64,000 bases of DNA from Gammaproteobacteria bacterium (ex Lamellibrachia satsuma) (GCA_019623805.1 CP053680.1:4224423-4288422); one strand, 5' to 3'. Shown: positions 10,151 to 49,780, numbered from the stretch's first letter. The notes: generated by a model not told the origin, from the letters alone. Numbers and translations: made by a program.

Positions 10151-10199
10151 TGGAGGCTTAGGTCGAAATCTGACCAAGATCCATGGCTTTGTAGGCTGC
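10151..10199 (-). repeat. Degenerate copy of the tRNA-Cys 3' half (outer att site of element B)
   Basis: 38/49 matches to the tRNA-Cys gene from 49707 on by manual alignment; lies 32 bp from tRNA-Leu. Confidence 0.8.
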
Positions 10200-10555
10200 C
10201 TTATTTTTGTATATTTCAATAGGTTAAGTCGATTACCGCCCGCCTTGCCACTCCGCATAGTGATTTGGCGTTTGGAAACTGGCGACAAAGTACCATCGAA
10301 AACCCAAAAACGCCACAGCAACTGACACTGGCATGTAGTGAATGCCTATCAATCATTTGTTGCTTTCGGATCGTGAACCCTTACCAGGCCTTGTTCTAAG
10401 AAACCACATTGCATCGTCAACTGCTAGACACTGGCATGCAACTCCTTGATCTTATGCTCATCCTCCACCAGTTTCGACGTATGAGAGCTGCGCAAAGCAC
10501 TTTAAGGCCAAGTGTCCTCATGCTATGAAATGCCTGGTAAAAGACCAAAGAGTCA

Positions 10556-10823
10556 ATGGCGACCACAAGATCATTATATTTTCCGAATGGGCGCGCATGC
10601 TGCAGCTGGTCCGAGAGCAGGCTGGGAGATGGGGCTGGGACACGCCTGGCATACCAAAACACCATGAAGAGATCCGACGTTTCAAGGACGATCCCGATTG
10701 CCGGCTATTCCTCACCACCGACTCAGGCTCCGTAGGACTCAATCTTCAGGTGGCCGATGTAGTGATCAACCTGGATATGCCCTGGAATCCGGCAAAACTG
10801 GAACAACGCATCGCCCGTGCCTG
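10556..10823 (+). pseudogene. Internal fragment of SNF2 helicase (HELICc region)
   Basis: Near-identical to ~43685-43970 of the intact SNF2 (GDHKIIIFSEW...GSVGLNLQVADVVINLDMPWNPAKLEQRIARA); truncated at both ends. Confidence 0.9.
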
Positions 10824-11200
10824 ACGTGCCGGTGGCCAAGCCAGCCGGGATGGTCCTCTTGAAAATCATTGCATGGACGGACCGTACCAGAGATATGCGC
10901 AGAAAGGACGCGATAGATATCGCCTGTCTTCTTTCGACCTACGAACTGATCCCAGAGGTCAGTAACGCGCTGTATGATAGCAAGAATACGGAAATCATGG
11001 AGACCCACGGTTGGGACATCACCCAAGCCTGCGCTTTCCTTTTGAGTCAACACACAGCAGGAGATCACCAGGCTGACCAATGGGGAATTGAGTCCGTTGA
11101 ATCTTGATCGCCTTACTGAAGAGATGTGCGAACATATCAACATTCAGTATGAAAGGAACTGACTACTACTGGCGGCCTTCATGACCGCCTTCAAAAATTG
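10824..11200 (+). pseudogene. C-terminal remnant of a nucleotidyltransferase (AbiEii-like)
   Basis: VPVAKPAGMVLLKIIAWTDR...RRKDAIDIACLLSTY pattern; frameshifts and an internal stop towards 11200; fused to the SNF2 fragment. Confidence 0.55.
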
Positions 11201-11216
11201 AATAACAGGTCACCGC

Positions 11217-12287
11217 TCAAGATTCGTCATCATCACTTAATTTACTGGAGATCTGTCCAAGCTCATCGAAAACACCGGACGCCATGATAATTTTTTTCTT
11301 TTTCCTTAACTTTATTACCTTGGGATCAAAGTTCTCCATGATGTCCGCGTGCGCTTCATCCAGAAACGCAATAGTCAGGCCAGCTTCACGTTTAAGTAGA
11401 GTATCGGTTTCGGCAAGTGGCGTCAGGAGTGAGGCACAATCAGATAGATAATGTCTCCAACGGACACGCTGGAGGGACTCGGCGTTAGTAAAAATATAGG
11501 ATCGGCTGGGGTCATCGTCCCAATTCTCTTCCTTCATATAGACGGCCGGCTCCCAAGAAGCAAGCTCCTCTCCCAAAATATCGCGCCGCTCATCCTGGTA
11601 AGCCCACCAGCGGCGCTTCAGTTCATCAAGTTGGCCTTCGAGACCATTGGCATCGGTGCGCATGTCCCACAAAAAACCACCACCTTGCCGTTTGCCGTTG
11701 CTCTCCCCTTCGATCAATTCACTGGGGATCAGGTTATCGATATGGCCATTAGCGGCTTCTTCGATCTCTCCCATCAGGTGCGTCGTCAGCGAGGTTACCG
11801 TAGCGTAATATAACTGACCGTCGATCAGAAGGCGGATCCACCAGCCATGAGATATACCGTAGTAGCGCGAGCCTGCGTACTCTGAAAAGTCCCGAAATCT
11901 GGCGTGCTCCTGGAACAGATAGTCAGCATAGTCATATTCATAGAGCGTGGAGACATCCAGGATGCTGGTGCCGTCTTCCATGGATTCGTTCAGGTAGATG
12001 TGGTCTTCCCCTATACCACTAGTGAGTAGCATGGCCCAGTTGAGCGAATAAAGGTCAGAGATGGAAACAGCCTCCCAGGCATCGTTGGCCTCCTGTTCCG
12101 AATGGCACTCGATCCCGCGCAAGCTGGCCAGAAGTAAGTGCCGAATGCGATATATCACATCATCGCCCATCGTGGCTCGAAATATCTCCTGTTGCTCATG
12201 AGACCAGGAATAAAAGGTGGGATCTGCAGCGATTAAGGCTCTACGAGCTGCGGCTACTATATCGGATTTGCGGTAAGGGTGTGACAT
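11217..12287 (-). CDS. Hypothetical protein (356 aa, acidic, Trp/Tyr-rich)
   Basis: Long ORF with protein-like composition; no motif recognised. Confidence 0.7.
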   Translation of the reverse strand: MSHPYRKSDIVAAARRALIAADPTFYSWSHEQQEIFRATMGDDVIYRIRHLLLASLRGIECHSEQEANDAWEAVSISDLYSLNWAMLLTSGIGEDHIYLNESMEDGTSILDVSTLYEYDYADYLFQEHARFRDFSEYAGSRYYGISHGWWIRLLIDGQLYYATVTSLTTHLMGEIEEAANGHIDNLIPSELIEGESNGKRQGGGFLWDMRTDANGLEGQLDELKRRWWAYQDERRDILGEELASWEPAVYMKEENWDDDPSRSYIFTNAESLQRVRWRHYLSDCASLLTPLAETDTLLKREAGLTIAFLDEAHADIMENFDPKVIKLRKKKKIIMASGVFDELGQISSKLSDDDES

Positions 12288-13179
12288 AAGGTGAACTCAA
12301 CAACAATCCACCAAATATAGGAGAGAGCAACTTTGGCCGCATCGAGCACTGGTGCACATCTTAGACTTACCCTGGTAACTTACAATTGCAACATCGTCTG
12401 AAGATGCCAGCCCAAATTACTACAAATTAGACGACATATTACTGAAAAGGTCTACACCTATGGTTATCATGTGACGACTTCGGCCAATCTTTAAGATAGT
12501 TTGATCGAAAGCGCCAAGGCGTAACGACGGCGGAGCACTGTTATTCTTCAACATTAGTGCCAAACAACTGTTGGCCCCCTCGATACCAGCTACCGTGTAG
12601 CCACAACGACCAAGCAAAGAAGAAAGCCCACTCCAATCCTTGGAGCGGGCCTTCGAGAGGTCGGCACCTTCCCTGGTGCCTGGCCAGCCGTCATCCATGA
12701 GCCTGACCTTAATACAAGGGGGTGCATCCTTGCGCCCATCCGATCTTTATCGGCTGTCCTTGCTGGGAATTAATATACTATCCCGCATCGAGAAAACGCA
12801 TCAGCAATATCCTTCCTATCTGTAGGAATTGTCTGAAAAGCCGTGTTTTAGGCAATGTGGCCACACCGCCCTGCCTATCTACATTATGTTGATAAGGGGC
12901 GCTCTACTTCAGCCCACAAACAGGTAATGGCCCTGCTGTATCAAATATTGGCGCTGAAAGTCTGGCGTGAAGCCCTGCCCCCGGTACCACTTCGCCACAT
13001 CATTTCAAGCTTGATGCTGGCGATAAAGCTTCGTCCATCGCCACTCTAACCATGCGCCTAACAGAGACTGCGCACCTTTGCTTCACTCTCCATTGCACGC
13101 AGCCAAGCATAAAATTCCTACTCTCTACTTATCCAACTCCCTTTCGACTGTTGCCGCGTGAATAGTAATTCGCCAGGAA

Positions 13180-13219
13180 CAAGTTATACGGAGAATACTG
13201 ATTCATTCCGTATAACTTG
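13180..13219. repeat. Perfect 13-bp inverted repeat with 14-bp spacer
   Basis: CAAGTTATACGGA (13180-13192) ... TCCGTATAACTTG (13207-13219). Confidence 0.8.
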
Positions 13220-13455
13220 CAATCTGAATCAGTGAGTTATGATTGAGCAGAGCGAAGCGAATTATACCGCCCATTCTGGATTGCACTGTCCCATGTCATC
13301 TTCTTGAGCTCATTATTTGCGCTTTAACTTTTTTCTGTCTGATCGGTTGCAAGGTTGGCTGCTTGGGTGAATGCCTGCATAGTCCGTTGGCGAAGATTGA
13401 GCTTACCTCCGGTATTTTCCCAGACGAAATTGGCAGCAAACTTTGACACTACGGT

Positions 13456-14454
13456 ATGGGATACAAAAAGCACGGCAAACATCTGACCTTGATCCCATTC
13501 ACTCTTCGAAAGACCGATGAACAGCTGGTTGACGTCTCCAAAGTTCAAAAAGGGAAAGAATGCGGCTGTGTGTGCCCATCGTGCCATGCACCATTGATCG
13601 CACGGAAGGGGGAGATCAATCAATGGCACTTTGCCCATGCATTACGGGGATTTGAAGGGAATAAGGTTGAGCAATGCGAGTACTCTTTCTACCTCTCGGT
13701 TGCACTAATGGCCAAACAGCTGTTCCAAAAATGTGATTCCATCAGGTTACCAGATTACATCCATGCCCATTCCGTGTACAGCCGTTACTCCCATCAAGTG
13801 TACAAACGCTCCATAAAACTTACCAAAGGGCGCAGAATTTCGCCAGAGTACTGGCTGGCAGATCATAGACTCAATGGGATAACAGTGGACGCAGTGTGCC
13901 AAATTGCAGGGGTAAAACTCGGAATCATTCTGAAACGTCCAGATAAAAAGGTCCTGATCAATGCAGCAAATTTTGAGGGTAAACGGGTCGGGGTTGTCCA
14001 GGTTGATCTGTTGGAGACACTGCGTATTTTCCGAAACATAACGCTAAGTCGGAAAGTGGGTGGTTTTCAACAGGCGCTCAGACATTTTCTATTTGACCGA
14101 ATAGACAATAAGCAGTGGATTTACTACCCACGCCAGGAGATCCGCATTGTAGTGATGCAACAGGAACTATCGGCACAGATTGATAAAGATGAGGCCAAAA
14201 TCAAAGCAAATAAAGCAAAGACACAGATAAAGATGCATACGGAATCTGTATTTGATGGCGGCACATTGACTGAAGCACACCCATCCGATTCAATATAAAT
14301 ACCAAGGAAGCCACCCAAGCCGGAAGTTAACCTCGGGGAACCTGTCCGGTATGAATGCGTGCTCTGTGAAGAGACCTGGACTGGCACAGAAAGAGGGGTC
14401 AATCCCTGTCCGAAATGTCACAGTCACCTGTACAGGAGGTCATTGAGAGATTGA
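13456..14454 (+). pseudogene. CoiA-like Zn-finger/putative nuclease protein with an in-frame TAA at 14296-14298
   Basis: N-terminal C-x-C-P-x-C...HFAH (CoiA-type). The same frame continues past the stop for 51 codons with CVLC...CPKC to TGA at 14454. Confidence 0.6.
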
Positions 14455-14519
14455 CCGGTAGAGCATCAGATAGCGCGCCATGCCGCTAGCGCTGTTTCCT
14501 CGATGTGCGCTTGAATGGC

Positions 14520-15473
14520 CCAAGCACGAGCTGTTTTCAGTGTGCTGTCGCGCAATACCTTGAACCGACCCTTCTTGTTTGCGCGTAATGTTCTCAGGGT
14601 TGTAGAGCCAGTCATACTTGCTTCCTTTGAGGTCTTGATAGCCTTCTGCGATCAATGCCTTGTGTTCTTCGCGGCGAACTTTGTCTACGGCTTCACCGAG
14701 ATATTTGGCAACATGGAATTTATCAAAGGCGATTTTCTCCTCAGCTTCAGGTAGGCTTTCCAGTGTGGCATTGATAAAGGCTGGCCACATATCCATGGAA
14801 ACACTCTCTATCGCCTCTCGCAGTTCTTCTGTCAGACTGTCATACCACGCCTTGAGTGTCGCCTTCTTGCGGTCACTACCAACGTGTAGCAATGTTCCTA
14901 CCTCTTGGTCTGATACAACTGTCACGTAATCATGGCGCTTCTTGAAAGCCGTTTCATCAACGCCAATATGCGTCGGGTAGATCTCTTCTCTGCGAGCCAG
15001 TCCTCGCTCAACCGATCGCTGCATGATCCCATCTATGGCATTCCAGCTCAGCCCCATCAATCGGGAAACCGCAGAGATGGATGCCTCTTTCAACCAATCA
15101 ATCACCAGCGCCTCAAACATTGCCGTAAAGCCAGAGCCAGGTTCGGCCCAGGGAACTGACATTGTGACCACACCATGCTCTTCGCACTTCACTCTGGGAA
15201 CATCCGCCACCAGAATGATCTTGTACTGACAGCTATCCAAGTGTCTCCAGCGGCGTTTGCATGAATCATAGCCTGGTGAGATCTGTCAGCAGGTTGGGCA
15301 ACACAGCTTGGCTCCTTCCTCCTGCTCTACGTGGACCGTTACCTCACCTTCTGACACAGCCAGCTCTACTCTGCTAACCTGCAGGGACTCTTGATACCCA
15401 AAATCTGGGCGTATAGATCTTTCTCTCTCATAGTGGATTACGCTAACCTGCCCACCTGATCAGGGGAAGAGCC
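14520..15473 (-). mobile_element. Truncated ISL3-family element; transposase pseudogene
   Basis: Left end GGCTCTTCCCC at 15473; ATG 15431 MREKDLYAQILG...; WRHLD, VPWAEPGSGFT, IGVDE, FDKFHV; frameshift and stop near the 5' end; breaks off after TARAWAI; no right IR. Confidence 0.85.
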
Positions 15474-17302: not shown

Positions 17303-17512
17303 TAAATCTCTTTTAAGCTCATAATATCAAACACTTCATCTCCTCCCATCGTCTATGCGGATGAAATGTATCTATTGATAACGAAAGTATAGTTCAAGAA
17401 AAAAACCTCCAAGGTCCCTAAAACCCTATGTTGAACAGCTAATTACCTACAAATGACGGGGTATCTGCCATGTCCATGGCGGATTAAACAAAGATTCTCT
17501 AAGCTAACCATT

Positions 17513-18394
17513 ATGTTAACGATACTTTTTATCGGTTCATTAAGTATCCAGTCACTGGTTACTCTGAAGGCGCTACTCAACTCCGGCCACAGTGTAGGAG
17601 TAATCGCCATAGCAGATTCCGCTGTGGGATTGAAAAAAGCATCTCTATCTACCCGGCCCTATATTCCGGTTTTATTGAAACATGCGAATGACTCCATCCT
17701 GAGTGTGGCCACAATACACGGCATCCCTGTGATACTCCTGGATCGCCAAGATACCGGAGAACGTTTACAACCCTATGCTTTGGATGTAGGAATCGTCTCC
17801 TGCTTTCCACACCAGTTGCAAAACAGCCTACTACAAATTCCAAGATTGGGTTGCTATAACCTGCACCCTTCCCTGCTGCCGCAATACCGTGGCCCATCAC
17901 CCCTTTTCTGGCAATTCAGAAATGGCGAATCGAAAATAGGGATAACTTTGCACAGAATGGTTCAGCTAATTGATGCCGGCCCTATTGTTGCCTGGGAGCA
18001 GGTGCCGGTGATTGACGGCATCTCCGAAACAGATCTGAAACGATTGTGCGCAACCGTTGGCAACGCATTGATTCAAACGCTGTTACAACAGTTGGAGTCG
18101 GGGAGCTTATGCCTGACCACCCAGGATGAGCAACAGGCAAGCTGTCACAGCTGGCCTGGGGAAGAGGATTTCCATATCACAACGGAGTGGTCGGCAAGGC
18201 GGGTCCACAATTTCATCTGTGGTACCCGGCATTGGGGGAATCCATATATCCTGCAACTCGGCAGACATCGTTTCTCAATTGTCTCAACGGAAGGGTTCTC
18301 CCGGCACACCCTGCCGGATAAAGACTACAAAGTGGACGGCATTTGGCTAAAGTTCAACTGCTATGATGGTTGTGTAACGGCACGAATTTGCTGA
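17513..18394 (+). CDS. 10-formyl-THF-dependent formyltransferase (Fmt-like)
   Basis: NLHPSLLPQYRGPSP, GITLHRM, DAGPI. Start set at ATG 17513. Confidence 0.85.
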   Translation: MLTILFIGSLSIQSLVTLKALLNSGHSVGVIAIADSAVGLKKASLSTRPYIPVLLKHANDSILSVATIHGIPVILLDRQDTGERLQPYALDVGIVSCFPHQLQNSLLQIPRLGCYNLHPSLLPQYRGPSPLFWQFRNGESKIGITLHRMVQLIDAGPIVAWEQVPVIDGISETDLKRLCATVGNALIQTLLQQLESGSLCLTTQDEQQASCHSWPGEEDFHITTEWSARRVHNFICGTRHWGNPYILQLGRHRFSIVSTEGFSRHTLPDKDYKVDGIWLKFNCYDGCVTARIC

Positions 18395-18451
18395 TTGATC
18401 AACTCAGAAATCCAATGATTCACCACCATCAGCAGTAATGGACAGTGAATA

Positions 18452-19507
18452 ATGCACAGCAATGCACCTGAACTCTACCGACTGATAGAGACAGTTCTAC
18501 AGGAGAGACTGGACAATGGCACAACCCGCTGCCACCTCTGCCCCTGGCGTTGCAAGATCAGCCATGGCCAGCGCGGCTTTTGTCAAGCCCATGTCAATCG
18601 AAACGGCACCCTCTACAATCTCTCCTACGGCATCCTCTCCGCCATCCATGTCAATCCGATAGAAGAGAAACCGGTACGACATTACCGGCCGGGCACCCAG
18701 GTCCTGTCAGTCGGCAGCTACGGCTGCAGTTTTCGTTGTGGCGGCTGCCATAACCTGGATATCTCCTGGGGCGTGACCGCGCTGGAAGACCTGGCCCGGG
18801 GCGAATCAACAGCCGCCTATGTTCGGCCCGAAGAGCTGGTCGGTATCGCCCTTCGACAGGGGGTTCAGGGCATCGCCTTCACCTATTCCGAACCGGCAGT
18901 CTGGCTGGAATATGTAATCGACGTATGTGAGCAAGCCCATCAGGCTGGTCTCTACACCGTCTACGTCTCGAACAGTTTCGTCACAGAAGAGGCGCTGGAG
19001 CTGGTTGCACCCCATCTCGACGTGCTCTGTTCCGACGTCAAGAGCCTGCACGATGACTTTTACCATGCCATCTGCCCTACCGCCAAGGTCAGCGAGATCC
19101 TCGCCACGATCGAGAGGGCGCAGGAACTGGGTATCCACGTCGAGACCCGCTCCAACCTGATCCCTGGCAGAAACGATGACCCTGATGAGTTGTATCGAAT
19201 CGCCTGCTGGGTGCGGGAACACCTGGGCGAGACCAGCCCCTGGCATATCACCAAATTCTTTCCTGCCTACAAGCTCAGCCATCTGCCGGAAACCCCGAAT
19301 AAAACCCTGTGGTCAGCCTATGAACAGGCCCAGCGTGCCGGGCTGAAAAATGTCTATGTCTACCCTGACAAGGGCTGCGACTGCGCAACAGAGAATCGTC
19401 CTCTAGACGACTATCTGGAGGGAGATGTGGGCGATCTCCAGACTGTGAAAAAATGCAGCGCAAACTGCTGCGGTAGTGAAGGTGTATTGTTGAGAAAATA
19501 TGAGTGA
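18452..19507 (+). CDS. Radical SAM enzyme, AmmeMemoRadiSam (AmrS)-like, with Cys-rich tail
   Basis: CHLCPWRC...C N-terminal cluster, PIEEKP, CSFRCGGC (CxxxCxxC), TYSEP, FFPAYKL; tail GCDC...CSANCCG. Confidence 0.85.
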   Translation: MHSNAPELYRLIETVLQERLDNGTTRCHLCPWRCKISHGQRGFCQAHVNRNGTLYNLSYGILSAIHVNPIEEKPVRHYRPGTQVLSVGSYGCSFRCGGCHNLDISWGVTALEDLARGESTAAYVRPEELVGIALRQGVQGIAFTYSEPAVWLEYVIDVCEQAHQAGLYTVYVSNSFVTEEALELVAPHLDVLCSDVKSLHDDFYHAICPTAKVSEILATIERAQELGIHVETRSNLIPGRNDDPDELYRIACWVREHLGETSPWHITKFFPAYKLSHLPETPNKTLWSAYEQAQRAGLKNVYVYPDKGCDCATENRPLDDYLEGDVGDLQTVKKCSANCCGSEGVLLRKYE

Positions 19508-19602
19508 AGCCACACACAATTCATAATTGAGAGAGCATTTTGAAACTGTCACTGTTATTTAATTTTTCAAGGATTCAGAATTTCTTTACGAGAACTGACA
19601 AT

Positions 19603-19890
19603 ATGCCAAAAATGGTCGACTGTGTTGTCCTGAAGCGACCTTCAGAGAGCCTCGACAAGCCACCGCACCCGGGAGAACTGGGGCAGCGTGTTTATCAGCA
19701 CGTCTCCAAAGAAGGTTGGAAGAAATGGCTGGAGCGTCTCACCACGATCATTAATGAAAACGGCTTGAGCACTGCCGATCCAAAGGATATACGCTTGATC
19801 GAAAGGCACATGGTGGGTTTTCTGTTTGGAGAAGGTGATATGGGTCAACTGCCCGCGGGATTTCGGGCCGGTGGTGGTGGTAAAAAATAG
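19603..19890 (+). CDS. yggX: Fe(II)-trafficking/oxidative-damage protection protein (YggX family)
   Basis: MVDCVVL...PGELGQRVYQHVSKEGW...IINENGL...FLF. Confidence 0.8.
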   Translation: MPKMVDCVVLKRPSESLDKPPHPGELGQRVYQHVSKEGWKKWLERLTTIINENGLSTADPKDIRLIERHMVGFLFGEGDMGQLPAGFRAGGGGKK

Positions 19891-19904
19891 TAAACAGTGG
19901 AACC

Positions 19905-21188: not shown

Positions 21189-21535
21189 GCGCCGCAGACA
21201 CCGGAACCACCTGTCTGCGAAAAGACATTGTTAAATACAAAACTCTTATTTAAACCCTCATGTTTGTAGTCAATTTCCACACCTTCCAGATAATTAAGTG
21301 CAACCGCATCCACATAAACATTCATTCCATTGCATTCCAAAACACAATCAAACTCTGTTGGCGTTTCAACAAACGTCATGCCATAAGTCATACCATCACA
21401 ATCTCCACCTGCGACAAAGATACGGATGCCACTGATATCCGATTCAGCATTTATCAGTTGAAGCAGCTTCATCTCTGCAATCTGTGAAATTCTTACCGCG
21501 TCAGTTATTGTGTGATTAAACTGTTCGTTCTGCAT
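21158..21535 (-). CDS. HesB/IscA-like Fe-S carrier with atypical Cys tail
   Basis: IRIFVAGGDCDGMTYGM, VYVDAVALNYLEGVEIDY, FVFNN; C-terminus VCGACGAAGGGCA. Confidence 0.8.
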   Translation of the reverse strand: MQNEQFNHTITDAVRISQIAEMKLLQLINAESDISGIRIFVAGGDCDGMTYGMTFVETPTEFDCVLECNGMNVYVDAVALNYLEGVEIDYKHEGLNKSFVFNNVFSQTGGSGVCGACGAAGGGCA

Positions 21536-21652
21536 TGCATGTTCCCAGCATTTTACATATTCCTGTGGAAACTGTGAGGTTAAAGTCGCCAAACTCACTC
21601 ATATGTTGTTAGTAATAAAGCAATTTTCGAAAAGGTGTGGCTGAAATCACAA

Positions 21653-21877
21653 TTATGCCGCTTGGCGCCCACTCTGACTATCAATAGGGCGACGGCGATC
21701 CCTACCCGTCCTGCGGTTAGTTCCCGGTGACCTTACAACTGCTGGGGATTGTGTTACGGAAAAGGCATGCCAATAGTGATATAGCATCAAGCTGAGCATG
21801 ACGAGACCGCCGACAATCAGGAAAAGCACAAATAACGCAGGGAATAGCATCAGGATGCCTGCAAATATCTGTTCCAT
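21653..21877 (-). CDS. Small single-pass membrane protein
   Basis: AGGAGG RBS, long hydrophobic N-terminus, basic tail. Confidence 0.55.
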   Translation of the reverse strand: MEQIFAGILMLFPALFVLFLIVGGLVMLSLMLYHYWHAFSVTQSPAVVRSPGTNRRTGRDRRRPIDSQSGRQAA

Positions 21878-22040
21878 AATTCATCCCTCCTGACCCTTCG
21901 TTAGTAAAAGCAATTCTTGCCTCTCTCTGGAATTTTGACACTAACTGCCTTTGTTAGTGCCCAGCGCACCGAACATTAGGCATAATGCGGATGTCCAAAC
22001 ATTGATAAGGCGCATGCATCACTCGATGAGGAGATTAGCA

Positions 22041-22928: not shown

Positions 22929-22937
22929 CCTGATGTC

Positions 22938-35154: not shown

Positions 35155-35164
35155 TTCATACCTA

Positions 35165-40624: not shown

Positions 40625-40672
40625 TGGAGGCTGAGCCCGGAATCGAACCGAGGTCCACGGCTTTGCAGGCCG
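40625..40672 (-). repeat. Exact 48-bp copy of the tRNA-Cys 3' end (att junction between elements A and B)
   Basis: TGGAGGCTGAGCCCGGAATCGAACCGAGGTCCACGGCTTTGCAGGCCG identical to 49707-49754. Confidence 0.95.
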
Positions 40673-41354
40673 TATCACTTTCTTATAATTCAATAGGTTA
40701 CGAAGTTTACCACCCGCATTACCACTCCGCTTAGTGATTTGGCGTTTGGAAACTGGCCACAAAATACCATCGAAAATCCAATAACGCCATTCTTCACCAT
40801 CAATAAATACTAATGTGATTCTTCAGGATCAGTCTTAATACCCTATTCACCGGGTAATACTCAAGCTGTCGGTGATACGCCGACTGGAATACACAAGAGC
40901 ACTCCCAAACTGCAAACCAAAGTGGAAAGCTGCCGTTAGCAGGTTTACAGCCGAGAGCACTACCATCTTCCCGTACCGGCTTAACTATCAATTCTCCATA
41001 CACAAGCGATCACTGCATTACCCTGATACCGATCACTAATTATGAATGCGGCAGTATTTTGGACATTTTGACCCAAAAAGAGGCGCTGACCGGGAAATTC
41101 TCGAGCATGCAATCCAAGCAGTAGCACAGAAGACAGGCCTGCACCTCCATGTCGAAAGATGGGCGGGCTGCGCCTCTCGCTACACCACTCTATTTACTAT
41201 TTTAACCCCGATTTTTCCATGACTTTTGAGTGAACGCAGTCTCAAGCGCAATTCGCCCTATATGAATTCGCCGCGCAGCACATAATACAAACATTGACAA
41301 TCATTGTAGCTTCCACCATATTCAGCCTTAGGCTCATTAACTCTGGAGAAAGCC

Positions 41355-41612
41355 ATGCACGTCTCCCTTACCCCAGAACTGGAAACCCGCATTAAAGCCA
41401 AAGTTGAAAGCGGTCTATACAACAATGCCAGCGAAGTCGTCCGCGAAGCATTGCGCTTTATGGATACTCACGAGGACTGGATTCACGAAGTCAAAGTCGC
41501 ACGCCTTCGCGAGCAACTGAAAGTGGGTATCGAGCAACTGGATCGTAACGAAGGTATCACCATTGAATCTAAAGAAGCTCTGGATAGCTTGTTTAAAAAT
41601 ATCAAGGGATAA
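41355..41612 (+). CDS. parD: ParD-like RHH antitoxin
   Basis: MHVSLTPELE...VESGLYNNASEVVREALR; TTGACA-17-CATATT upstream at 41294-41322. Confidence 0.85.
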   Translation: MHVSLTPELETRIKAKVESGLYNNASEVVREALRFMDTHEDWIHEVKVARLREQLKVGIEQLDRNEGITIESKEALDSLFKNIKG

Positions 41613-41621
41613 GCACCGCGA

Positions 41622-41954
41622 ATGGAACCACATACTTTGCTCATCGCGCCTATTGCTCGGGACGACCTAAAATGTATTTATGATTACGGTGTTAGCAACT
41701 GGGGCGCCACACAGGCATCAAGCTACCTGGAAAAACTCAAAGAGCATTTCTGGGGACTGACTAAACAGCCAAAAATAGGTATTGAGCGCGGAAAGTTAAT
41801 GCCCGGCATGCGTAGTTTTCCTGTTGGCAGTCACATCGTGTTCTACCGACTTCAACAGTCTCAAGTAGAGGTTGTTCGCGTTCTTCACTGTCGCCAGGAC
41901 CCCCAACGCCACATTAAATATGTGATTCCTGGATCTGTTTTGACACCACCGTAA
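41622..41954 (+). CDS. parE: ParE/RelE-family toxin
   Basis: ARDDL..IYDYG..NWG..QA..Y, HIVFYR, VVRVLH. Confidence 0.85.
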   Translation: MEPHTLLIAPIARDDLKCIYDYGVSNWGATQASSYLEKLKEHFWGLTKQPKIGIERGKLMPGMRSFPVGSHIVFYRLQQSQVEVVRVLHCRQDPQRHIKYVIPGSVLTPP

Positions 41955-42086
41955 ATGCAGGCAGATTCGGTGGTCGGCACTCAGCCACCAACATCGAGTA
42001 TCAGCACCGAAAATACCATGAGTGGAAACTTGATGAATATAGTTGCTATATAAACTCGTAAACAACCCATACGATACCTTTCCATC

Positions 42087-44870
42087 ATGTCGAAAACAAA
42101 GAAACGTAATAAAGACTCCCAAAGACCGGCCCGGCCATCAGGCTGGTCAACCAGTGACGCCGATGAGATCGAACGCCGTCGTTTGCGCGGTCTGAATGAA
42201 CCATCACGGATTGAATCCCAAGCACCGGACGATAATTTTTTCGGTATCTATCAGGTCGACTCCAACAACGAGCAAACTTACCGTGTAGAGATTCGCTCTC
42301 TTGCAAAACCGATCAACAGCTGCGACTGCCCCGACCACCGCATCAACGGCCTGGGCACCTGCAAGCATATCGAGGCAACACTGTACCGGCTCCAGTACAG
42401 GCGCAAGCGCGCTTTCCAGAATGCTGCTGCCAAAGGCAGTCCATACATCGAAATCTTTCTGGACCGGCGGGACCACCAAGTCAGGGTACGCTGGCCAGAA
42501 GTCGGACATCGCCGTTCCAAGGCTCGGGGCCTCATCACCCCCTTCTTTTCCAACGACAACATTCTGGCGGGTAATCCCCTCGACACACTGCCTGCCATGC
42601 AACGGGCAATTAACGCCTCTCATCCAGCTGTCAGGCGCAGCATCCGGTGGTCACATGAGTTGAATACCTGGCTCGAAACACTGGATCAGCACGCGCAACA
42701 GATCCGCAGCCGCCAACACTTCGAGACCGAGTTAGCAGCAGGAAATGCGAGCCTCGAACTTGTCAAGCACCCTCTCTATCCTTACCAGCAGGAGGGCATG
42801 CTGCACCTGGCATTCACCGGCCGAGCCCTGCTGGCGGATGAGATGGGGCTGGGCAAAACAGTGCAGGCAATCGCCGCCTGTGAGCTGCTGCGCCGTACCT
42901 CGGGCATCCGGCGAATATTGGTGATCTCCCCCGCTTCGCTCAAGGGCGAATGGGAGGAGCAGATCGACAAATTCACCAGCCTGCATTCAAGTATTATCCA
43001 GGGGACGCGCGCCAAGCGTCTGCGCCAATACGAAGACCCTGCATTCTTCTCACTTGCCAGCTATGAGCAGATGCGATCGGACGTAGAGGAAATAAACACC
43101 ACCCTGGCCCCGGATGTCATCATTCTGGATGAAGCCCAGCGCATCAAGAACTGGCAGACCAAGACGGCTATCTCAATCAAGCGCCTGAAAAGCCCCTACG
43201 CTTTTGTACTTACCGGCACACCGATAGAGAACCGCATTGACGAAATCTATTCGATCATTCAGTTCCTCGACCCACATATCTTCGGCCCCCTATTCCGATT
43301 CAACCGCGACTTCTACAAACTGGATGAGAAAGGGCGCGCCGTTGGCTACAGGAACCTCGACCAATTGCATAAGAGACTGCAGCCCATCATGCTGCGCCGA
43401 CGGAAAGAGGAAGTAGAGGGGCAGCTACCGGGTCGCACGATAAACACCTATTTCGTCCCCATGCACAAAGAGCAGGTGCTGCGCTACGGGGAGTACGAGT
43501 CGCGAGTGGCGCGTCTTGCCGCTACGGCCAAAAAGCGGCCACTGAAAAAAGATGAGATGGAACAGCTCCAACTTTATCTGGCCTGTATGCGTATGCTCTG
43601 TGACACACCCTATATTCTGGACCAGGATTGCCGCATTTCACCCAAGCTGAAGGAGCTTGGCAACATCCTCCAGGAAATCATGGCGGATGGCGACCACAAG
43701 ATCATTATCTTTTCCGAGTGGGAGCGTATGTTGCAGCTGGTTCGGGAGCAGGCCGAGGAGATGGGGCTGGGCTACGCCTTACATACCGGCAAGATTCCGC
43801 AGCCAAAACGCCGTGAAGAGATCCGACGTTTCAAGGACGATCCCGAGTGTCGACTATTCCTCTCCACCGACTCAGGCTCCGTAGGACTCAACCTGCAGGT
43901 GGCCGATGTAGTAATCAACCTGGATATGCCCTGGAATCCGGCCAAACTGGAACAGCGCATCGCCCGTGCCTGGCGAAAGCACCAGAAACGCCCGGTGCAG
44001 GTAATCAATCTTGTATCTGAAGGCTCCATCGAACACCGCATGCTCTCTCTGCTAGAGCAGAAACGTTCCCTGGCCGAAGGCGTGGTGGATGGTAAAGGCA
44101 AAAATGAAATGGACCTCCCCTCCGGCCGTGCCGCTTTTTTGGAGCGGATCGATACCCTGATTGCGGGTGAGTCAAAAGAACCACAAACGCCACCCGCCGA
44201 TCCGCTCGATCGTCTGCGGGACGATATTCTTTCGCAGTGGAGCCATCAACTGGAACTGATGGAACTGCATGGTAAAGGAGCACAGCAGACTCTGCTGGTG
44301 GTGGCAGACCGGCTGAATGACGCTCTGCAGAGTGCCCTTACCCGGCAACTGCAAGAACGATTCCCCGAGCAGACGCCGCTATTAAAACTGCTGGACCGAG
44401 ATGCCTTCGCGACCATCCAGCAACTGATCGAAGCCGGCATCTTGAACACCAACCGGGATACTGCCAGAACGGTCTACCGCGCCCCAGCCGCGGATAAACC
44501 AAAAGATGACGAACAATCAAAACGACTGACCGAGGCCCGCAACCGCCTGACCCAGAGTGAACATAAACGGCGAATGGCGAAAGTGCTCACCGAAGGCGGT
44601 TTTTCAACAGAGGCACTCGTCCCGATGCGTGATGCCGTTGAGACGGCCTTGCACGCCCTACTCTTTTGGCGGGGTCACGACACTGAAAAAACGCCAGCCC
44701 AGAAACTGATCGAGTCAACGCTGGTACAGGCGAACCTGCTGCCAGCCGAAACTTTGTCCCTAGTCGCCAATCTGCGGAAGGATCAACCAGAGATGGATGA
44801 AGCTCAAGCGGATAAACTTATCAGACAAAGCGACGAGCTTCTTTCGCAGGCGGCTTCTGCCTTGGCGTAG
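42087..44870 (+). CDS. SWIM Zn-finger-SNF2 helicase with HEPN-like C-terminal domain
   Basis: CDCPD...GTCKHI SWIM; LADEMGLGKT, ILDEAQRIKN, LTGTP, QRIARAWR; tail ...MRDAVETALHALL. Confidence 0.88.
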   Translation: MSKTKKRNKDSQRPARPSGWSTSDADEIERRRLRGLNEPSRIESQAPDDNFFGIYQVDSNNEQTYRVEIRSLAKPINSCDCPDHRINGLGTCKHIEATLYRLQYRRKRAFQNAAAKGSPYIEIFLDRRDHQVRVRWPEVGHRRSKARGLITPFFSNDNILAGNPLDTLPAMQRAINASHPAVRRSIRWSHELNTWLETLDQHAQQIRSRQHFETELAAGNASLELVKHPLYPYQQEGMLHLAFTGRALLADEMGLGKTVQAIAACELLRRTSGIRRILVISPASLKGEWEEQIDKFTSLHSSIIQGTRAKRLRQYEDPAFFSLASYEQMRSDVEEINTTLAPDVIILDEAQRIKNWQTKTAISIKRLKSPYAFVLTGTPIENRIDEIYSIIQFLDPHIFGPLFRFNRDFYKLDEKGRAVGYRNLDQLHKRLQPIMLRRRKEEVEGQLPGRTINTYFVPMHKEQVLRYGEYESRVARLAATAKKRPLKKDEMEQLQLYLACMRMLCDTPYILDQDCRISPKLKELGNILQEIMADGDHKIIIFSEWERMLQLVREQAEEMGLGYALHTGKIPQPKRREEIRRFKDDPECRLFLSTDSGSVGLNLQVADVVINLDMPWNPAKLEQRIARAWRKHQKRPVQVINLVSEGSIEHRMLSLLEQKRSLAEGVVDGKGKNEMDLPSGRAAFLERIDTLIAGESKEPQTPPADPLDRLRDDILSQWSHQLELMELHGKGAQQTLLVVADRLNDALQSALTRQLQERFPEQTPLLKLLDRDAFATIQQLIEAGILNTNRDTARTVYRAPAADKPKDDEQSKRLTEARNRLTQSEHKRRMAKVLTEGGFSTEALVPMRDAVETALHALLFWRGHDTEKTPAQKLIESTLVQANLLPAETLSLVANLRKDQPEMDEAQADKLIRQSDELLSQAASALA

Positions 44871-44913
44871 ACTAAACAAGACTGACACTCAGTATTTTCC
44901 GGAAAAAACACCC

Positions 44914-45246
44914 GTGGCAAAATCGAAACGACAGAGTTCTAACAAGGATCGGCAGTGGGTCTAGGCCAAACGACGCTTCCGCCTCAGCCGGGAGGATATC
45001 CGTATGGCCAGGGAACTGGGCCTCAACCCCCGCTCCCTGATCAAAAACATCCCTTCCCCGACTCAACAGTGGAAGTTACCGGTTAAACAGTGGATCCACG
45101 AACTCTATGAAGAGAAGATCGGAAAAACCCCTGTAATAAAATGCCATGGAACCCAGTCTTTCAAACGCATCAAGCATAATGCAAAAAACCCTGTTCCACT
45201 GAACGCCTCTGCGTTAACACCGGAGAGAAGTATCCCCCTCGTATGA
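44914..45246 (+). pseudogene. Small basic ORF (copy 2) with in-frame TAG at 44962
   Basis: GTG start, W-V-*-AKRR where copy 1 has W-A-E-AKR. Could still yield an 80-aa product from ATG 45004. Confidence 0.6.
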
Positions 45247-45391
45247 TATTCAAAGCAAGGCATGGAAAGAGTAGTTGAACTTTAACTCCTAAAAACTACA
45301 CCGATGACCACATCCGTTCTTTTTACCAGCTTGTATTACAATTCCTCGGGCTTTGTATATTTTTTCCTATGTAATGTAACATTCATACTTA

Positions 45392-46000
45392 ATGACTCAA
45401 ACGACACAGACAGACAAGGTGCTGGAACTGGTACAGAAGGAAGGGGTTCTGCGTCCCCGGGACCTCGAACCTTACGGCATCCCACGGATCTATCTCAGTA
45501 GACTCCACGCAGCTGGTAAGCTGCAACGAATCGGTCGGGGGCTCTACGTGCTTCCCGGTACCAACGTGAGCGAACACCGCTCTCTGGCCGAGGCCTGCAA
45601 ACGAGTACCGAAAGGAGTGATCTGCCTCCTGTCCGCTCTGCGTTTTCACGAGCTCACTACACAGTCGCCCTTCGAAGTCTGGCTGGCCATTGGCGAGAAG
45701 GCTTGGCGGCCGCGTGTGGAGTACCCTCCTCTACGTATTGTCCATTTCTCTTCGGCAGCGCTCAATGCTGGCGTGGAGGAGCACCGGATCGAGGGTGTAA
45801 TCGTGCCTGTATTCACACCAGCAAAGACTGTGGCCGATTGCTTCAAGTATCGAAATAAAATTGGGCTGGATGTTTCCATTGAGGCACTCAGGGAATGCTG
45901 GCGATCGCGGCGCTGCACCATGGATGACCTCTGGCAATACGCTAAGGTTTGCCGTGTTCAGAACGTCATGCGGCCCTATCTGGAATCGCTTGCAACATGA
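45392..46000 (+). CDS. Type IV TA antitoxin, AbiEi family (copy 2)
   Basis: Near-identical to 35165-35773. Confidence 0.9.
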   Translation: MTQTTQTDKVLELVQKEGVLRPRDLEPYGIPRIYLSRLHAAGKLQRIGRGLYVLPGTNVSEHRSLAEACKRVPKGVICLLSALRFHELTTQSPFEVWLAIGEKAWRPRVEYPPLRIVHFSSAALNAGVEEHRIEGVIVPVFTPAKTVADCFKYRNKIGLDVSIEALRECWRSRRCTMDDLWQYAKVCRVQNVMRPYLESLAT

Positions 46001-46923
46001 TGGGTAAACGGGGGAGAAACACCGCGGCCTCGGTGCGGGACCGGTTGCTCGAACTGGCAAGGCAGCGAGGTGAGGAGTTCCAGTTGATCCTGACCCGCTA
46101 TGGGCTGGAACGATTTTTGTACCGGCTGAGCCAATCGGAGTACCGCAATCGCTTCATACTGAAGGGCGCAATGCTTTTCACCCTGTGGGACGACCAGATG
46201 CATCGCCCAACCCGCGATGTAGACTTCCTCGGATTCGGCGACAGCGGAGAAGCGGCACTACGAGAAATCTTTCGCAATTTATGCGACATACCTGTTGAGG
46301 ATGACGGTTTGGTATTCCTTGCTGACAGCGTTAGTGTTGAATCGATCCGCGATGCGACTGAATACGGTGGCACACGCGTGGTACTGCTCGGTGAGCTGGC
46401 CGGTGCCCGCATCCCAATCCAGGCTGATATTGGGTTCGGCGACGCCGTAACGCCTGAACCGGAAGAGGTTGAGTATCCCACACTACTGGAATATCCGACG
46501 CCTCGCTTGAGGGTCTACCCGCGGGAAACTGTGGTGGCCGAAAAATACCAAGTTCTGGTCAACCTGGGTATGGCAAACAGCCGGATGAAGGACTTCTATG
46601 ACCTTTGGATAATTGCTCATCAGTTTGAGTTTGACGGGCTCACGTTATCCGAAGCCGTCCGTAACACCTTTGCACGTCGCCAAACGCCCTTACCGAAACA
46701 AACACCATCCGGCCTTAGTTCAACATTCTACGGTGACAAGCAGAAAAACCAGCAGTGGAATGCGTTTCTAAGTAAAGGAATACTGCTTTCCACCTCCACT
46801 CCCCCATCAATTGAGGAGGTCTGCTATCTGCTTGAAAAATTTCTTATGCAGCCAACACAGGCTCTGGAAGATAACCAAACCTTCACCGGGCAGTGGCAGC
46901 CCGGTGGCCCGTGGAAAATCTAA
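45997..46923 (+). CDS. Type IV TA toxin, AbiEii nucleotidyltransferase (copy 2)
   Basis: Near-identical to copy 1; catalytic motifs intact. Confidence 0.9.
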   Translation: MMGKRGRNTAASVRDRLLELARQRGEEFQLILTRYGLERFLYRLSQSEYRNRFILKGAMLFTLWDDQMHRPTRDVDFLGFGDSGEAALREIFRNLCDIPVEDDGLVFLADSVSVESIRDATEYGGTRVVLLGELAGARIPIQADIGFGDAVTPEPEEVEYPTLLEYPTPRLRVYPRETVVAEKYQVLVNLGMANSRMKDFYDLWIIAHQFEFDGLTLSEAVRNTFARRQTPLPKQTPSGLSSTFYGDKQKNQQWNAFLSKGILLSTSTPPSIEEVCYLLEKFLMQPTQALEDNQTFTGQWQPGGPWKI

Positions 46924-46955
46924 GTTGTGTTGGAGCGACCGACTGAACATCTGAA

Positions 46956-49421
46956 TTGGACCTGACTATGGAGATTTCTGATCGCGAAGTCATTCTTCGA
47001 AAAATCGCCGAAGTCGAACAGCAAATTACCCTTCTCCGAAAGCAGCAAGAAGAATCTGAGACAACACTCAAATCACTGAGGGAATGCCTGGCACTAGGTG
47101 ACGACGAAACAACGCACAAACCAAAACATCCAGCAGAAGTTCCCGTTTTTACAACGACAAGCCTAACACCAGACGAGAAGGTCACCCTTTTTCTCCGCCT
47201 CTTTCAAGGCCGAGAGGATGTGTATCCAAAATTGTGGCAGAACCAAAAAACGGGCAAGAAGGGCTATTCGCCTGCCTGTTCGAATGAGTGGATTCGCGGA
47301 GTATGTGAGAAGCCCCGGGTAAAATGCGGTGAGTGCTCCAATCAGGCCTTCCTGCCGGTAACAACCGAGGTGATTCTGGACCATCTCCAGGGACGTCACA
47401 TCATTGGTGTATACCCTATGCTGAAGGACGATACCTGCCGGTTTATCGCAGCCGATTTTGACAAAGCAGCTTGGCGTGAAGACGTTATGGCTTTTACGGA
47501 AACCTGTCGGCGAGCAGACGTTCCTTATGCCATTGAGCGTTCCCGTTCTGGGAATGGTGCACACGTCTGGTTCTTTTTCAGCAATCTGGTTTCCGCAGCG
47601 ACAGCAAGGAAGATGGGCAGCTATTTTATTACGGAAACCATGGCCAGACGACATCAACTCAGCATGGCATCCTATGACCGGCTTTTCCCAAACCAGGATA
47701 CCTTACCCAATGGTGGCTTCGGCAATCTCATCGCTCTCCCGCTTCAATATCACCCGCGACAGAAAGACAATACCCTCTTTCTGAATGACGAGCTGGAGCC
47801 ATTTCCAGATCAGTGGGAATTCCTCGCATCGCTGGTTCCGATTCAGGTAGAGAAGGTTGAAAAGATCGCCATGGAAGCCACAACCTGTGGCCAGGTGACT
47901 GGTCTCCAGATTTCCATTACCGAGGAAGATGATGTTGATGCCAGCCCGTGGTTGAGGCCGCCCTCCCGAAAACCAAAGCACATTCCGATCACCGACCCCG
48001 TTCCACATCAGGTGCGAGGTATTTTATCCCAACGTTTTTACATCGAGAAAGCCGGCCTACCGTCGCCTTTGATCAATCAGATTCAACGGTTTGCCGCATT
48101 CCAGAATCCAGAATTCTACAAGAAACAAAATCTTCGACTTTCCACGGCACTGACTCCCCGCGTAATCTCCTGCGCTGAAGATCATGGAAAGCACATCAGT
48201 CTGCCGCGAGGGTGTCTCGACGACGTACGGGCATTGCTCCAGGAATACAAAAGCCACCTTGAGGTGGAAGATCTGAGAATCCTCGGCGATCCCGTGGATG
48301 TTAGCTTCTTCGGTGAATTGACCGATGCCCAGCACCATGCAGCGAAAGCCATACTCGAGCACGACAACGGCGTGATCGTGGCGCCACCTGGTTTTGGGAA
48401 AACCGTCCTTGGAACCTACCTGATCGCTGCGCGAATGTGCAGCACCTTGATCCTGGTGCATAGACAGCCGCTGTTGGAACAATGGAGATCACAGATCGGC
48501 ATCTTTCTTGACCGTGATGCAAAATCAATCGGTCAGATTGGTGGCGGGAAACGCAAGCTGACAGGGCAAGTCGACGTGGCCATGATTCAGAGCCTGTCCC
48601 GAAAAGACACCATGGACGACATCGTGGCCAAGTATGGGCAGGTTATCATCGATGAATGCCACCATCTGCCAGCTGTTTCGTTCGAACGAGTCCTCTCCGA
48701 GATAAAGGCACAATACGTTGTCGGGCTGACCGCTACACCGCAGCGCCGCGACGGACACCAGCCCATCACCCATATGCAGATCGGACCGATTCGATTCAGG
48801 GTCGATCCACGTAGTCAGTTAGCGCAACGCCCCTTCGAACATCGACTTGTAGTTAGGGAAACCGGCTTTGGGCCACCCATGCAGGCATCCGATATAACCA
48901 TTCAGGAACTCTACAGCCTGTTGATAGCCGATGAAAAGCGCAACGAGCGGATCATTGATGATGTGCTGCTGGCTATGGAAGAAGGTCGATCACCGATTCT
49001 GCTGACGGAACGCAAAAACCACCTTGAGGATCTCCATCAACGGTTAAAGGGCTTTGTCCGGCATATCGTCGTTCTGCAGGGAGGACAATCAGCAAAAGAA
49101 CGGCGCAAAGTCCAGGAACAACTCGCTTCTATTCCAATGGAAGAGGAGCGCCTCCTGCTGGCAACCGGAAGGTACATCGGAGAAGGATTCGACGATGCAC
49201 GCCTGGATACCCTGTTTCTTTCGCTACCGGTTTCGTGGAAAGGCACACTCGTGCAATATGCTGGGCGACTGCACAGGTTGCATCCTGGTAAGCGCGAAGT
49301 GCGTATTGTCGACTACGTTGATGGCAAGGTGCCAATGCTCGCAAGAATGTATGAAAAACGACGTGTCGGCTATCGCTTAATGGGATACCGAGAAGAGGAT
49401 AGCAGGACTTTCCTCGATTAG
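46956..49421 (+). CDS. AEP-primase-like (TOTE-type) domain fused to SF2 DEAD/DEAH (ResIII-like) helicase, intact
   Basis: CSNEW...C...C.EC Zn region; AADFD, ERSRSGNGAHVW, GNLIALP primase-like motifs; APPGFGKT, DECHH, LTATP, QYAGRLHR. Confidence 0.8.
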   Translation: MDLTMEISDREVILRKIAEVEQQITLLRKQQEESETTLKSLRECLALGDDETTHKPKHPAEVPVFTTTSLTPDEKVTLFLRLFQGREDVYPKLWQNQKTGKKGYSPACSNEWIRGVCEKPRVKCGECSNQAFLPVTTEVILDHLQGRHIIGVYPMLKDDTCRFIAADFDKAAWREDVMAFTETCRRADVPYAIERSRSGNGAHVWFFFSNLVSAATARKMGSYFITETMARRHQLSMASYDRLFPNQDTLPNGGFGNLIALPLQYHPRQKDNTLFLNDELEPFPDQWEFLASLVPIQVEKVEKIAMEATTCGQVTGLQISITEEDDVDASPWLRPPSRKPKHIPITDPVPHQVRGILSQRFYIEKAGLPSPLINQIQRFAAFQNPEFYKKQNLRLSTALTPRVISCAEDHGKHISLPRGCLDDVRALLQEYKSHLEVEDLRILGDPVDVSFFGELTDAQHHAAKAILEHDNGVIVAPPGFGKTVLGTYLIAARMCSTLILVHRQPLLEQWRSQIGIFLDRDAKSIGQIGGGKRKLTGQVDVAMIQSLSRKDTMDDIVAKYGQVIIDECHHLPAVSFERVLSEIKAQYVVGLTATPQRRDGHQPITHMQIGPIRFRVDPRSQLAQRPFEHRLVVRETGFGPPMQASDITIQELYSLLIADEKRNERIIDDVLLAMEEGRSPILLTERKNHLEDLHQRLKGFVRHIVVLQGGQSAKERRKVQEQLASIPMEEERLLLATGRYIGEGFDDARLDTLFLSLPVSWKGTLVQYAGRLHRLHPGKREVRIVDYVDGKVPMLARMYEKRRVGYRLMGYREEDSRTFLD

Positions 49422-49706
49422 CCGTATAAGTCAACGACACAGGCCGCCCCCACCCCGCAGAGGCTCTTGTATCAGTAGTATGGATTGACGAGTTTCAGTG
49501 CCAGAACTTGACGTTGAATTTCCAGCAGAGAAATACAAGAAAATGGAGTGAAAAACTGCCGTCCACGGCTTTTCTGTCCGTTACACGAGTGTCTTCTTTT
49601 GGTTTTTCGAGTGGCAGGAGTGGTTTTTGTGACAAAAAATGCCGATTTTCGCTTAAAGTGATATGGAGATAATGACTATATTCTATTGATTAATAGAACA
49701 ATAAAA

Positions 49707-49780
49707 TGGAGGCTGAGCCCGGAATCGAACCGAGGTCCACGGCTTTGCAGGCCGCTGCATAACCACTCTGCCACTCAGCC
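49707..49780 (-). tRNA. tRNA-Cys(GCA)
   Basis: GGCTGAGTGGCAGAGTGGTTATGCAGCGGCCTGCAAAGCCG...GGTTCGATTCC...TCCA, 74 nt. Confidence 0.97.

Follow-up and report, generated by a model that had tools for sequence, protein, structure and literature searches.

We analyzed a window of 64,000 nucleotides from Gammaproteobacteria bacterium (ex Lamellibrachia satsuma) (GCA_019623805.1, CP053680.1:4224423-4288422), which is part of a closed single-contig genome of 4.32 Mb. The region examined here lies between the tRNA-Cys gene (cysT) and the tRNA-Leu gene (leuZ) of this window. Two sibling genomic islands that have diverged from each other stand here in tandem, inserted in the 3' end of the tRNA-Cys gene. 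In this paper the island next to the functional tRNA-Cys gene is called element B, and the distal one is called element A. The features of the region are listed in Table 1.

Table 1. Features of the tRNA-Cys array (positions counted from the first letter of the window).
Feature	Position	Strand	Remarks
tRNA-Leu(taa), leuZ	10032-10118	-	ARAGORN and Rfam; host flank beyond the distal end
Degenerate distal att copy (tRNA-Cys 3' half)	10151-10198	-	37/48, ungapped
Element A	10199-40624		30.4 kb; backbone of B, damaged
Left end of A	10200-10315		homologous to left end of B (88%)
SNF2 helicase gene remnant of A	10556-10826	+	matches 43687-43975 of B
Cargo block	10827-34310		23.5 kb; replaces part of A's former SNF2 gene
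ISL3-family transposase fragment	14440-15240	-
IS21 element	27924-30220	-	istA 28676-30220, istB 27924-28658
IS630-family transposase, first copy	32584-33660	-
AbiEi and AbiEii of A	35165-36696	+	AbiEi 35165-35773, AbiEii 35722-36696; both frames open
IEE-family pseudogene of A	36729-40336	+	first 48 codons (36729-36872) cut off by the IS from 38009-40336; one internal TAA
IS630-family element in A's IEE gene	36871-38008	-	about 1.14 kb; TA(G) target; transposase 36883-37956
Right end of A	40337-40624		about 83-84% identical to right end of B
Middle att copy	40625-40672	-	48/48 against tRNA-Cys 3' part (tRNA positions 27-74)
Element B	40673-49706		9 kb; intact; both flanking att copies exact
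Left end of B	40673-41354		non-coding, 682 bp; integrase remnant undetectable
ParD antitoxin and ParE toxin	41355-41954	+	ParD 41355-41612, ParE 41622-41954
SNF2-family helicase	42087-44870	+	927 aa; resembles ZorD, DpdE and DrmD
AbiEi and AbiEii of B	45392-46923	+	AbiEi 45392-46000, AbiEii nucleotidyltransferase toxin 45949-46923
IEE homologue, intact	46956-49421	+	821 aa; AEP primase-polymerase (aa 74-304) and XPB-like SF2 helicase (aa 454-775)
Right end of B	49422-49706		285 bp; 98.9% identical to that of the middle element in L015
tRNA-Cys(gca), functional	49707-49780	-	ARAGORN and Rfam; 3' 48 nt (49707-49754) are the proximal att copy
tRNA-Gly(gcc)	49863-49938	-	ARAGORN and Rfam; host flank

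As shown in the table, both islands are bounded by copies of the tRNA-Cys gene that begin in the anticodon stem, run as far as the 3' end, and are regarded here as attachment (att) copies. The original prediction, which had been made from the same DNA, described three tRNA-Cys 3' halves, namely the functional gene at 49707, an exact 48-bp copy at 40625, and a degenerate copy at 10151, and all three were found in our analysis. The position of the degenerate copy beside tRNA-Leu was also correct, but its score had been given as 38/49, and the recount corresponds to 11 changes in 48 positions. No further tRNA-Cys half-copy matching at 28 or more of the 48 positions was present between 10 and 50 kb, including decayed copies inside A, and none of 20 shuffled sequences yielded a match of this level. 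The Rfam scan detected only the three tRNAs, and no non-coding RNA at the ends of the elements.

The empty site that the original prediction suggested looking for was found in related genomes. That is, glyW, cysT, and leuZ are contiguous within about 400 bp in at least nine genomes belonging to other genera of the same family, and the 39.5 kb that separates cysT from leuZ in the window is therefore inserted DNA. The relatives recognized by the identity of the flank (92-95%) are tubeworm endosymbionts and metagenome-assembled genomes (MAGs) of Sedimenticolaceae. Thus, the array has two of the features by which tRNA islands are defined, i.e., insertion at the 3' end with a known empty site, and direct repeats from the anticodon arm to the 3' end. 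The third feature, an integrase gene of its own beside an att copy, is absent.

The absence of a tyrosine or serine recombinase open reading frame (ORF) from the 39.5 kb had already been claimed, and our profile searches agree with this claim. A six-frame search of the whole genome with PF00589 gave ten hits to tyrosine recombinases, all of which were outside the window, and the same search with PF00239 detected no serine recombinase in the genome. The sole 'integrase core' domain in the window is that of IstA, the DDE transposase of the IS21 element. The non-coding ends of the elements were all searched with a custom integrase hidden Markov model and with phmmer --max, and no remnant of an integrase was found beside any att copy. 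Exact 45-nt duplications of the 3' half are also present at tRNA-Val and tRNA-Thr of the same genome (C1 27170-35370 and 1567500-1578200), and each of these islands has an intact integrase gene by the distal copy; only the tRNA-Cys array lacks one. A further integrase gene abuts tRNA-Arg (242228-243510). We considered whether one of the elements in this genome acts as a helper for the array, and rejected this candidate: neither the att core nor the arms recur elsewhere in it, and the arms of the tRNA-Val and tRNA-Thr islands are unrelated.

The hallmark gene of the backbone, which the original prediction did not recognize, is a homologue of IEE, the enhancer of insertion sequence (IS) excision. 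The protein of B is 46% identical over 756 aa to the IEE of E. coli O157:H7 Sakai (ECs_1305), and the DFD, GAHVW, GKT, and DECHH motifs are kept. It scored 330 bits with PF22548, in addition to matches to ResIII/Helicase_C, and the helicase is XPB-like. Having an archaeo-eukaryotic primase (AEP) domain and an SF2 helicase, and being alignable with ECs_1305 over its full length, the protein belongs to the IEE family, and it has thousands of relatives. The IEE of E. coli is a polymerase-helicase with the activity of a microhomology-mediated end-joining polymerase, and it promotes IS excision and deletions (PMC9943667; bioRxiv 10.1101/2023.06.07.543989). By homology, the IEE of the islands may likewise be a polymerase-helicase that aids the removal of insertion sequences. 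We also examined whether B is a TOTE conflict system, which is defined by TPR, OB, TBP, and Effector components (bioRxiv 10.1101/2025.09.15.676423). Because TPR-OB (cold-shock) and TBP genes are absent among the six genes of B, the Pfam name 'TOTE' does not apply to the island, and only the AEP domain bears this name.

A co-oriented toxin-antitoxin pair (ParDE, RelE/HTH, VapBC, or AbiE) regularly precedes the IEE gene in this family. In B, homology marks ParDE and AbiE as putative modules of the toxin-antitoxin or abortive-infection type, while the SNF2 protein is similar to the helicases found in the Zorya, Dpd, and DISARM systems. Judging from these homologies, the backbone looks like cargo for defence or against mobile elements. 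An origin from a phage or a satellite (of the phage-inducible chromosomal island or P4-like type) was rejected, since no domains of an integrase, a regulator, replication, capsid interference, or packaging were found and no relatives occur in viral contigs. We also noted two direct repeats, TTACCACCCGC and TTACCACTCCGC (TTACCACYC x 2), at about 40707-40732 in B and at 10234-10259 in A, which places them some 35-60 nt inward from the left end. Sibling elements in other genomes have kept them, and they look similar to the two CCACTC motifs of the tRNA-Cys 5' half. These repeats could be candidate protein-binding sites or a relic of the tRNA 5' half.

Then we compared A with B. The original prediction that the two elements have a common left end and a common right backbone is borne out by the alignment: 10149-10315 is 82% identical to 40623-40789 (88% over 10210-10315), and 34311-40672 is 85-94% identical to 44784-49754, the similarity being broken in A by the IS630-family insertion. 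The piece of the SNF2 gene retained in A (10556-10826 against 43687-43975) is an additional shared segment that had been missed. In AbiEi and IEE, the synonymous divergence (dS) between A and B was 0.09-0.26, with a dN/dS ratio of 0.07-0.13. The similarity among A, B, and the relatives is a mosaic by segment. That is, the IEE N-terminal part is the most similar between A and B (97.6%), whereas in four segments (spacer/AbiEi, AbiEii, the C-terminal part of IEE, and the right end) at least one of A and B is more similar to elements from other genomes than the two are to each other. This pattern indicates that recombination has taken place between the copies and between lineages. Since recombination has made the similarity a mosaic, there is no clean clock for A versus B, and the attempt at clean orthology with a molecular clock was abandoned.

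These comparisons bear on two simple explanations of the pair. One is that the second copy of the backbone is a mis-joined repeat of the assembly. Only the presence of a 5-kb repeat speaks for this, and since the repeats are diverged (81-96% identical, i.e., the copies differ at 4-19% of positions, in addition to the IS insertion) and the genome is one closed contig, we consider such an artefact extremely improbable; the same kind of array also occurs in related genomes. The other explanation, which is akin to the option in the original prediction that A arose by recombination or duplication of B's ends, is that one integrated element was doubled in situ by unequal crossing-over between the flanking att repeats and that the copies then diverged. 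Unequal exchange between direct repeats yields exactly such a structure, the similarity of the IEE N-terminal part fits it, and a tandem pair with 99% identity is found at another locus (L077, described below). The values of dS and dN/dS, on the other hand, point to a long divergence as selected genes, and the nearness of several segments to the elements of other genomes is not expected from a doubling in place; the right ends of A and B are only 84% identical to each other, while that of B is 98.9% identical to the one in L015. We therefore think that duplication in situ is unlikely.

With respect to the order of arrival, the original prediction that B integrated first and A later does not agree with our results, and the reverse order is more likely. 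A newcomer recombines with the intact tRNA gene and hence ends in the proximal position; in the tycheposon islands, too, newer elements displace older ones from the intact tRNA (bioRxiv 10.1101/2020.12.28.424599). Moreover, B is intact and both of its att copies are exact, whereas A has decayed and carries 11 changes in its distal att copy. In A, ParDE is absent, the 5' two-thirds of the SNF2 gene are gone, and its own IEE gene is disrupted by the IS630-family element. For these reasons, A is probably older than B. The leftmost junction itself is old, because the leftmost att copies of the window, of a genome of the same genus (G034), and of two other loci (L015 and L014) share derived bases (TTCCGACC in the copy at 10151-10198), although the 3' half of tRNA-Cys is nearly invariant in the family. 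The leftmost copy of L014 is not next to leuZ.

To see how the IEE gene is placed in other genomes, we fetched 141 loci and scored only those in which the sequence continued for 250 bp or more past the IEE gene on its downstream side. A locus was regarded as tRNA-adjacent when a tRNA gene on the opposite strand was present at most 700 bp from the IEE stop codon. When the IEE was at least 65% identical, 16 of the 38 loci adjoined a tRNA, which was tRNA-Cys, Arg, Glu, Met, Ser(gga), Ser(gct), or Thr. Among the more distant homologues, only two of 68 loci were tRNA-adjacent. No tyrosine recombinase gene was found on the same contig near the IEE homologue in 12 closely related genomes, and the contigs covered included some of 0.1-2.6 Mb. 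These results agree with the earlier proposal that the elements form a non-autonomous family.

Several arrays of this family are informative. L015 has four Cys att copies. In the JGI metagenome contig Ga0618268_0000193 (L069, 1100-12691), tRNA-Met is accompanied by four att copies, which bound a single IEE element and, in addition, three small cassettes (1.2-1.8 kb) with only toxin-antitoxin or Fic genes. In GCA_024639325.1 (L077, JAHEIO010000013.1, 491-7632), two tandem units of 3513 bp that are 99% identical (RHH_6, PIN_3, and IEE) are located at tRNA-Ser(gga) with three att copies and without an integrase; this tandem is the product of a recent amplification or of a double integration. A unit of only 3.8 kb (RelE, HTH, and IEE) is flanked by 48-bp tRNA-Arg repeats in L009. 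In a Bryobacteraceae MAG (L034, 8744-17897), a 9-kb element codes for VapBC, for a homologue of IEE, and for a single-subunit RNA polymerase that is T7-like; 47-bp tRNA-Pro repeats flank this element, and no integrase was found among its annotated ORFs.

The extent of the repeats and the traces of integrase genes in these relatives are important for the origin of the islands. The blocks of identity between att copies start at tRNA position 27 (Cys), 32 (Arg), 31 (Pro), and 32 (Met), and all of them reach the 3' end of the tRNA; in tRNA-Ser, the copies are limited to roughly the final 30 nt, beginning near the T arm. Tyrosine integrases reportedly cross over in a 7-nt loop of the tRNA, which is said to give repeats of such sublocations (Williams is credited with this description in 2002). 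In L122, the IEE gene is followed by an integrase gene and, 38 bp further on, by tRNA-Pro. In two cassettes of L069 (E1 and E4), about 50-100 bp of the 3' end of an integrase coding sequence are kept ahead of the att copy, and all right ends of this array share about the last 20 nt of the integrase gene and a hairpin. The far end of the same array holds an integrase remnant of 81 aa, which is related to the tRNA-Arg-abutting integrase of the genome studied here. C-terminal integrase pseudogenes are also located upstream of the toxin-antitoxin/IEE unit in L068 and L094. Because of the repeats from the anticodon to the 3' end and of these integrase traces, the family appears to be derived from integrase elements that lost the gene.

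Taken together, we think that A and B are best explained as non-autonomous derivatives of integrase elements, similar to cis-mobilizable elements (CIMEs), and that A arrived before B; on balance, we regard this explanation as the likely one. The following process can be considered. The islands would have been inserted by a tyrosine integrase crossing over in the anticodon loop. That is, a circle consisting of the right end, the tRNA 3' half, and the left end would recombine with the tRNA gene and replace its 3' half. The integrase gene would later have been deleted from the lineage of the element, leaving CIME-like cassettes that could be moved only by a cognate integrase acting in trans. A would have come first and been displaced from the tRNA by B; it would then have lost ParDE and much of the SNF2 gene, gained the 23.5 kb of cargo, and been hit by insertion sequences. 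The islands in this genome would most likely be immobile relics that have been inherited largely vertically, and their gene content would represent stabilization and defence cargo against phages and mobile elements, not a mobility module. Between genomes, the elements are 91-97% identical, compared with 92-95% for the host flank.

Several of our results weigh against this explanation. The window contains no remnant of an integrase, and the loss of the gene is read solely from the relatives; in the genomes examined, including G034, G038, and G049, no integrase-bearing element at tRNA-Cys was found either. The mosaic similarity of A, B, and the relatives blurs the chronology. The right end of B is 98.9% identical to that of L015 despite a host flank of only 92%, which hints at an exchange later than the split of the hosts, and the L077 tandem points to a recent amplification of some members. 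Furthermore, independent losses of the integrase fit poorly with close IEE homologues at seven tRNAs without an integrase, a distribution that suggests real mobility in trans or another mechanism.

There are two other explanations of the movement of the cassettes. If the family is mobile now, its cassettes would be shuffled by an integrase encoded elsewhere, either on a helper element or by a chromosomal gene, the tRNA genes would serve as docking sites like those of an integron, and B would be a recent arrival. Such present activity would account for the seven tRNAs without integrases, for the att copies that remain exact within arrays (48/48 in the window and 53-56/56 in L069), for the mini-cassettes of L069 with toxin-antitoxin genes only, for the near-identical tandem cassettes of L077, and for the conserved sequence blocks beside att, as well as for the similarity of B's right end to that of L015. 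But neither a cognate integrase nor another copy of the att core or arms was identified in the genome, and the divergence of the elements is overall about the same as that of the hosts. In addition, the block beside att in L069, judging from its sequence, also serves as the tRNA terminator, so that its conservation need not mean a recombination arm. We regard current mobility as possible but doubtful. At a similarly tentative level, one may imagine that the toxin-antitoxin and IEE cassettes and the mini-cassettes beside them are widespread non-autonomous units, which dock at many tRNA 3' halves and are shuffled by an outside integrase, so that they would form a tRNA-based analogue of the integron in which IEE might aid excision or copy-out between the repeats.

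The second explanation assigns the movement to IEE itself. That is, the primase-polymerase/helicase would excise, copy out, or insert the cassette by strand switching between the tRNA repeats of about 48 bp, with no need for a site-specific recombinase. It is true that IEE is the one large gene common to the minimal att-flanked units (3.8 kb in L009 and 3.5 kb in L077), that it is always adjacent to a tRNA in the close clade, and that the E. coli enzyme has the end-joining activity mentioned above and promotes IS excision and deletions (PMC9943667; bioRxiv 10.1101/2023.06.07.543989). However, the boundaries of the repeats at the anticodon or T loops fit tyrosine integrases and have no rationale under strand switching. 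Cassettes that lack IEE also occur in the arrays (E2-E4 of L069 and the proximal element of L015), relatives have integrase remnants or the order IEE-integrase-tRNA, distant IEE homologues are seldom beside a tRNA (2/68), and the known activity of IEE requires a transposase. Mobility driven by IEE thus seems quite improbable to us. We accordingly prefer the derivation from integrase elements by loss of the integrase gene.

The cargo block of A contains, besides the ISL3-, IS21-, and IS630-family transposase genes located between 14440 and 33660 (Table 1), a 356-aa ORF and genes for a CoiA_N protein, YdjM, a TetR-like protein, a formyltransferase, a radical SAM enzyme, an ATP-grasp ligase, an IscA-like protein, a ferredoxin-MBL protein, aconitase, fumarase/aspartase, an indoleamine-2,3-dioxygenase-like (IDO-like) protein, and an MBL protein. 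The IDO-like gene is split by the IS21 element (27270-27848 and 30432-31040), further copies of which are present elsewhere in the genome. The G+C content is raised, reaching 58%, in the part from 17453 to 27167, where the genes for the formyltransferase, the radical SAM enzyme, the ATP-grasp ligase (LAL_C2), the IscA-like protein, the ferredoxin-MBL fusion, aconitase, and the class II fumarase/aspartase are located; the aconitase and fumarase ORFs overlap as listed. This cluster may encode a small-molecule pathway. The 356-aa ORF, which matches no family, and its adjoining DNA (11211-13423) are found with 78-93% identity in L013, G038, and G034, where they are placed beside tRNA-Cys or between att copies. 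This region thus looks like a module of its own within such arrays.

Among the known systems, the islands are close to CIMEs and their tandem accretion, as described for ICESt1/ICESt3 of Streptococcus thermophilus (PMC5704250): they are flanked by att, have lost the recombination module, and sit in tandem at a conserved gene's 3' end. In accordance with the definition of CIMEs, the islands have att flanks without genes for recombination or conjugation. As to a possible derivation by deletion, 3' remnants of integrase genes are present in L069, L068, and L094, and L122 has the order IEE-integrase-tRNA, while the window has no such remnant. The islands differ from CIMEs in that they have neither a conjugative partner nor a cognate integrase, that the target is a tRNA gene, that the host is a sulfur-oxidizing gammaproteobacterial symbiont, and that the origin by deletion is inferred from relatives. 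They also resemble the tycheposons of Prochlorococcus (bioRxiv 10.1101/2020.12.28.424599) in successive integration anchored at a tRNA, partial tRNAs, degenerate remnants, and the frequent presence of a primase/helicase gene. Tycheposons, however, have as their defining gene a tyrosine (or serine) recombinase of their own, and the islands lack such a gene; the polymerase-helicase of the islands is an IEE homologue whose role as a replication module is only putative.

The integrative element annotated as SpLE1 in E. coli O157:H7 Sakai has iee (ECs_1305), which encodes the protein with 46% identity, at a distance of about 8 kb from its integrase end, but it is 86 kb in size with an intact integrase gene (ECs_1299), whereas the islands are 9 and 30 kb without one. 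The rows of small cassettes of the L069 type, with one kind of site and an integrase remnant at one end, remind us of integrons. In contrast to integrons, IntI, attI, and attC are absent, tRNA 3' halves serve as the sites, promoters and operons belong to the cassettes themselves, and no more than two large elements are present in the window. The IMEXs CTX and TLC (integrative mobile elements exploiting Xer) are similarly integrase-less, lie in tandem at one site, and borrow a recombinase from elsewhere (XerCD at dif); the islands target the anticodon arm of a tRNA instead of dif, and there was no sign of an involvement of Xer.

The window, with its two elements, is thus a modest example and a relic of a rather ordinary kind; the non-autonomous islands to which it belongs form a widespread family. 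The pattern of the family as a whole, i.e., IEE at the tRNA-proximal end, seven tRNAs, the lack of integrases, and mini-cassettes with an integrase tail, exceeds the descriptions that we found in the literature. The locus links the characterized IEE family to the tRNA-proximal ends of elements at seven tRNA targets, and the relatives show stages between an element with the order IEE-integrase-tRNA and cassettes without an integrase, in which no more than the final bases of that gene are left. It also provides a set of att sites and candidate integrases for tests of mobilization in trans, and of the action of IEE on repeat-flanked DNA other than insertion sequences. The movement of such pieces is poorly documented, and integrase-less tRNA arrays represent one route by which defence islands may be assembled and maintained.

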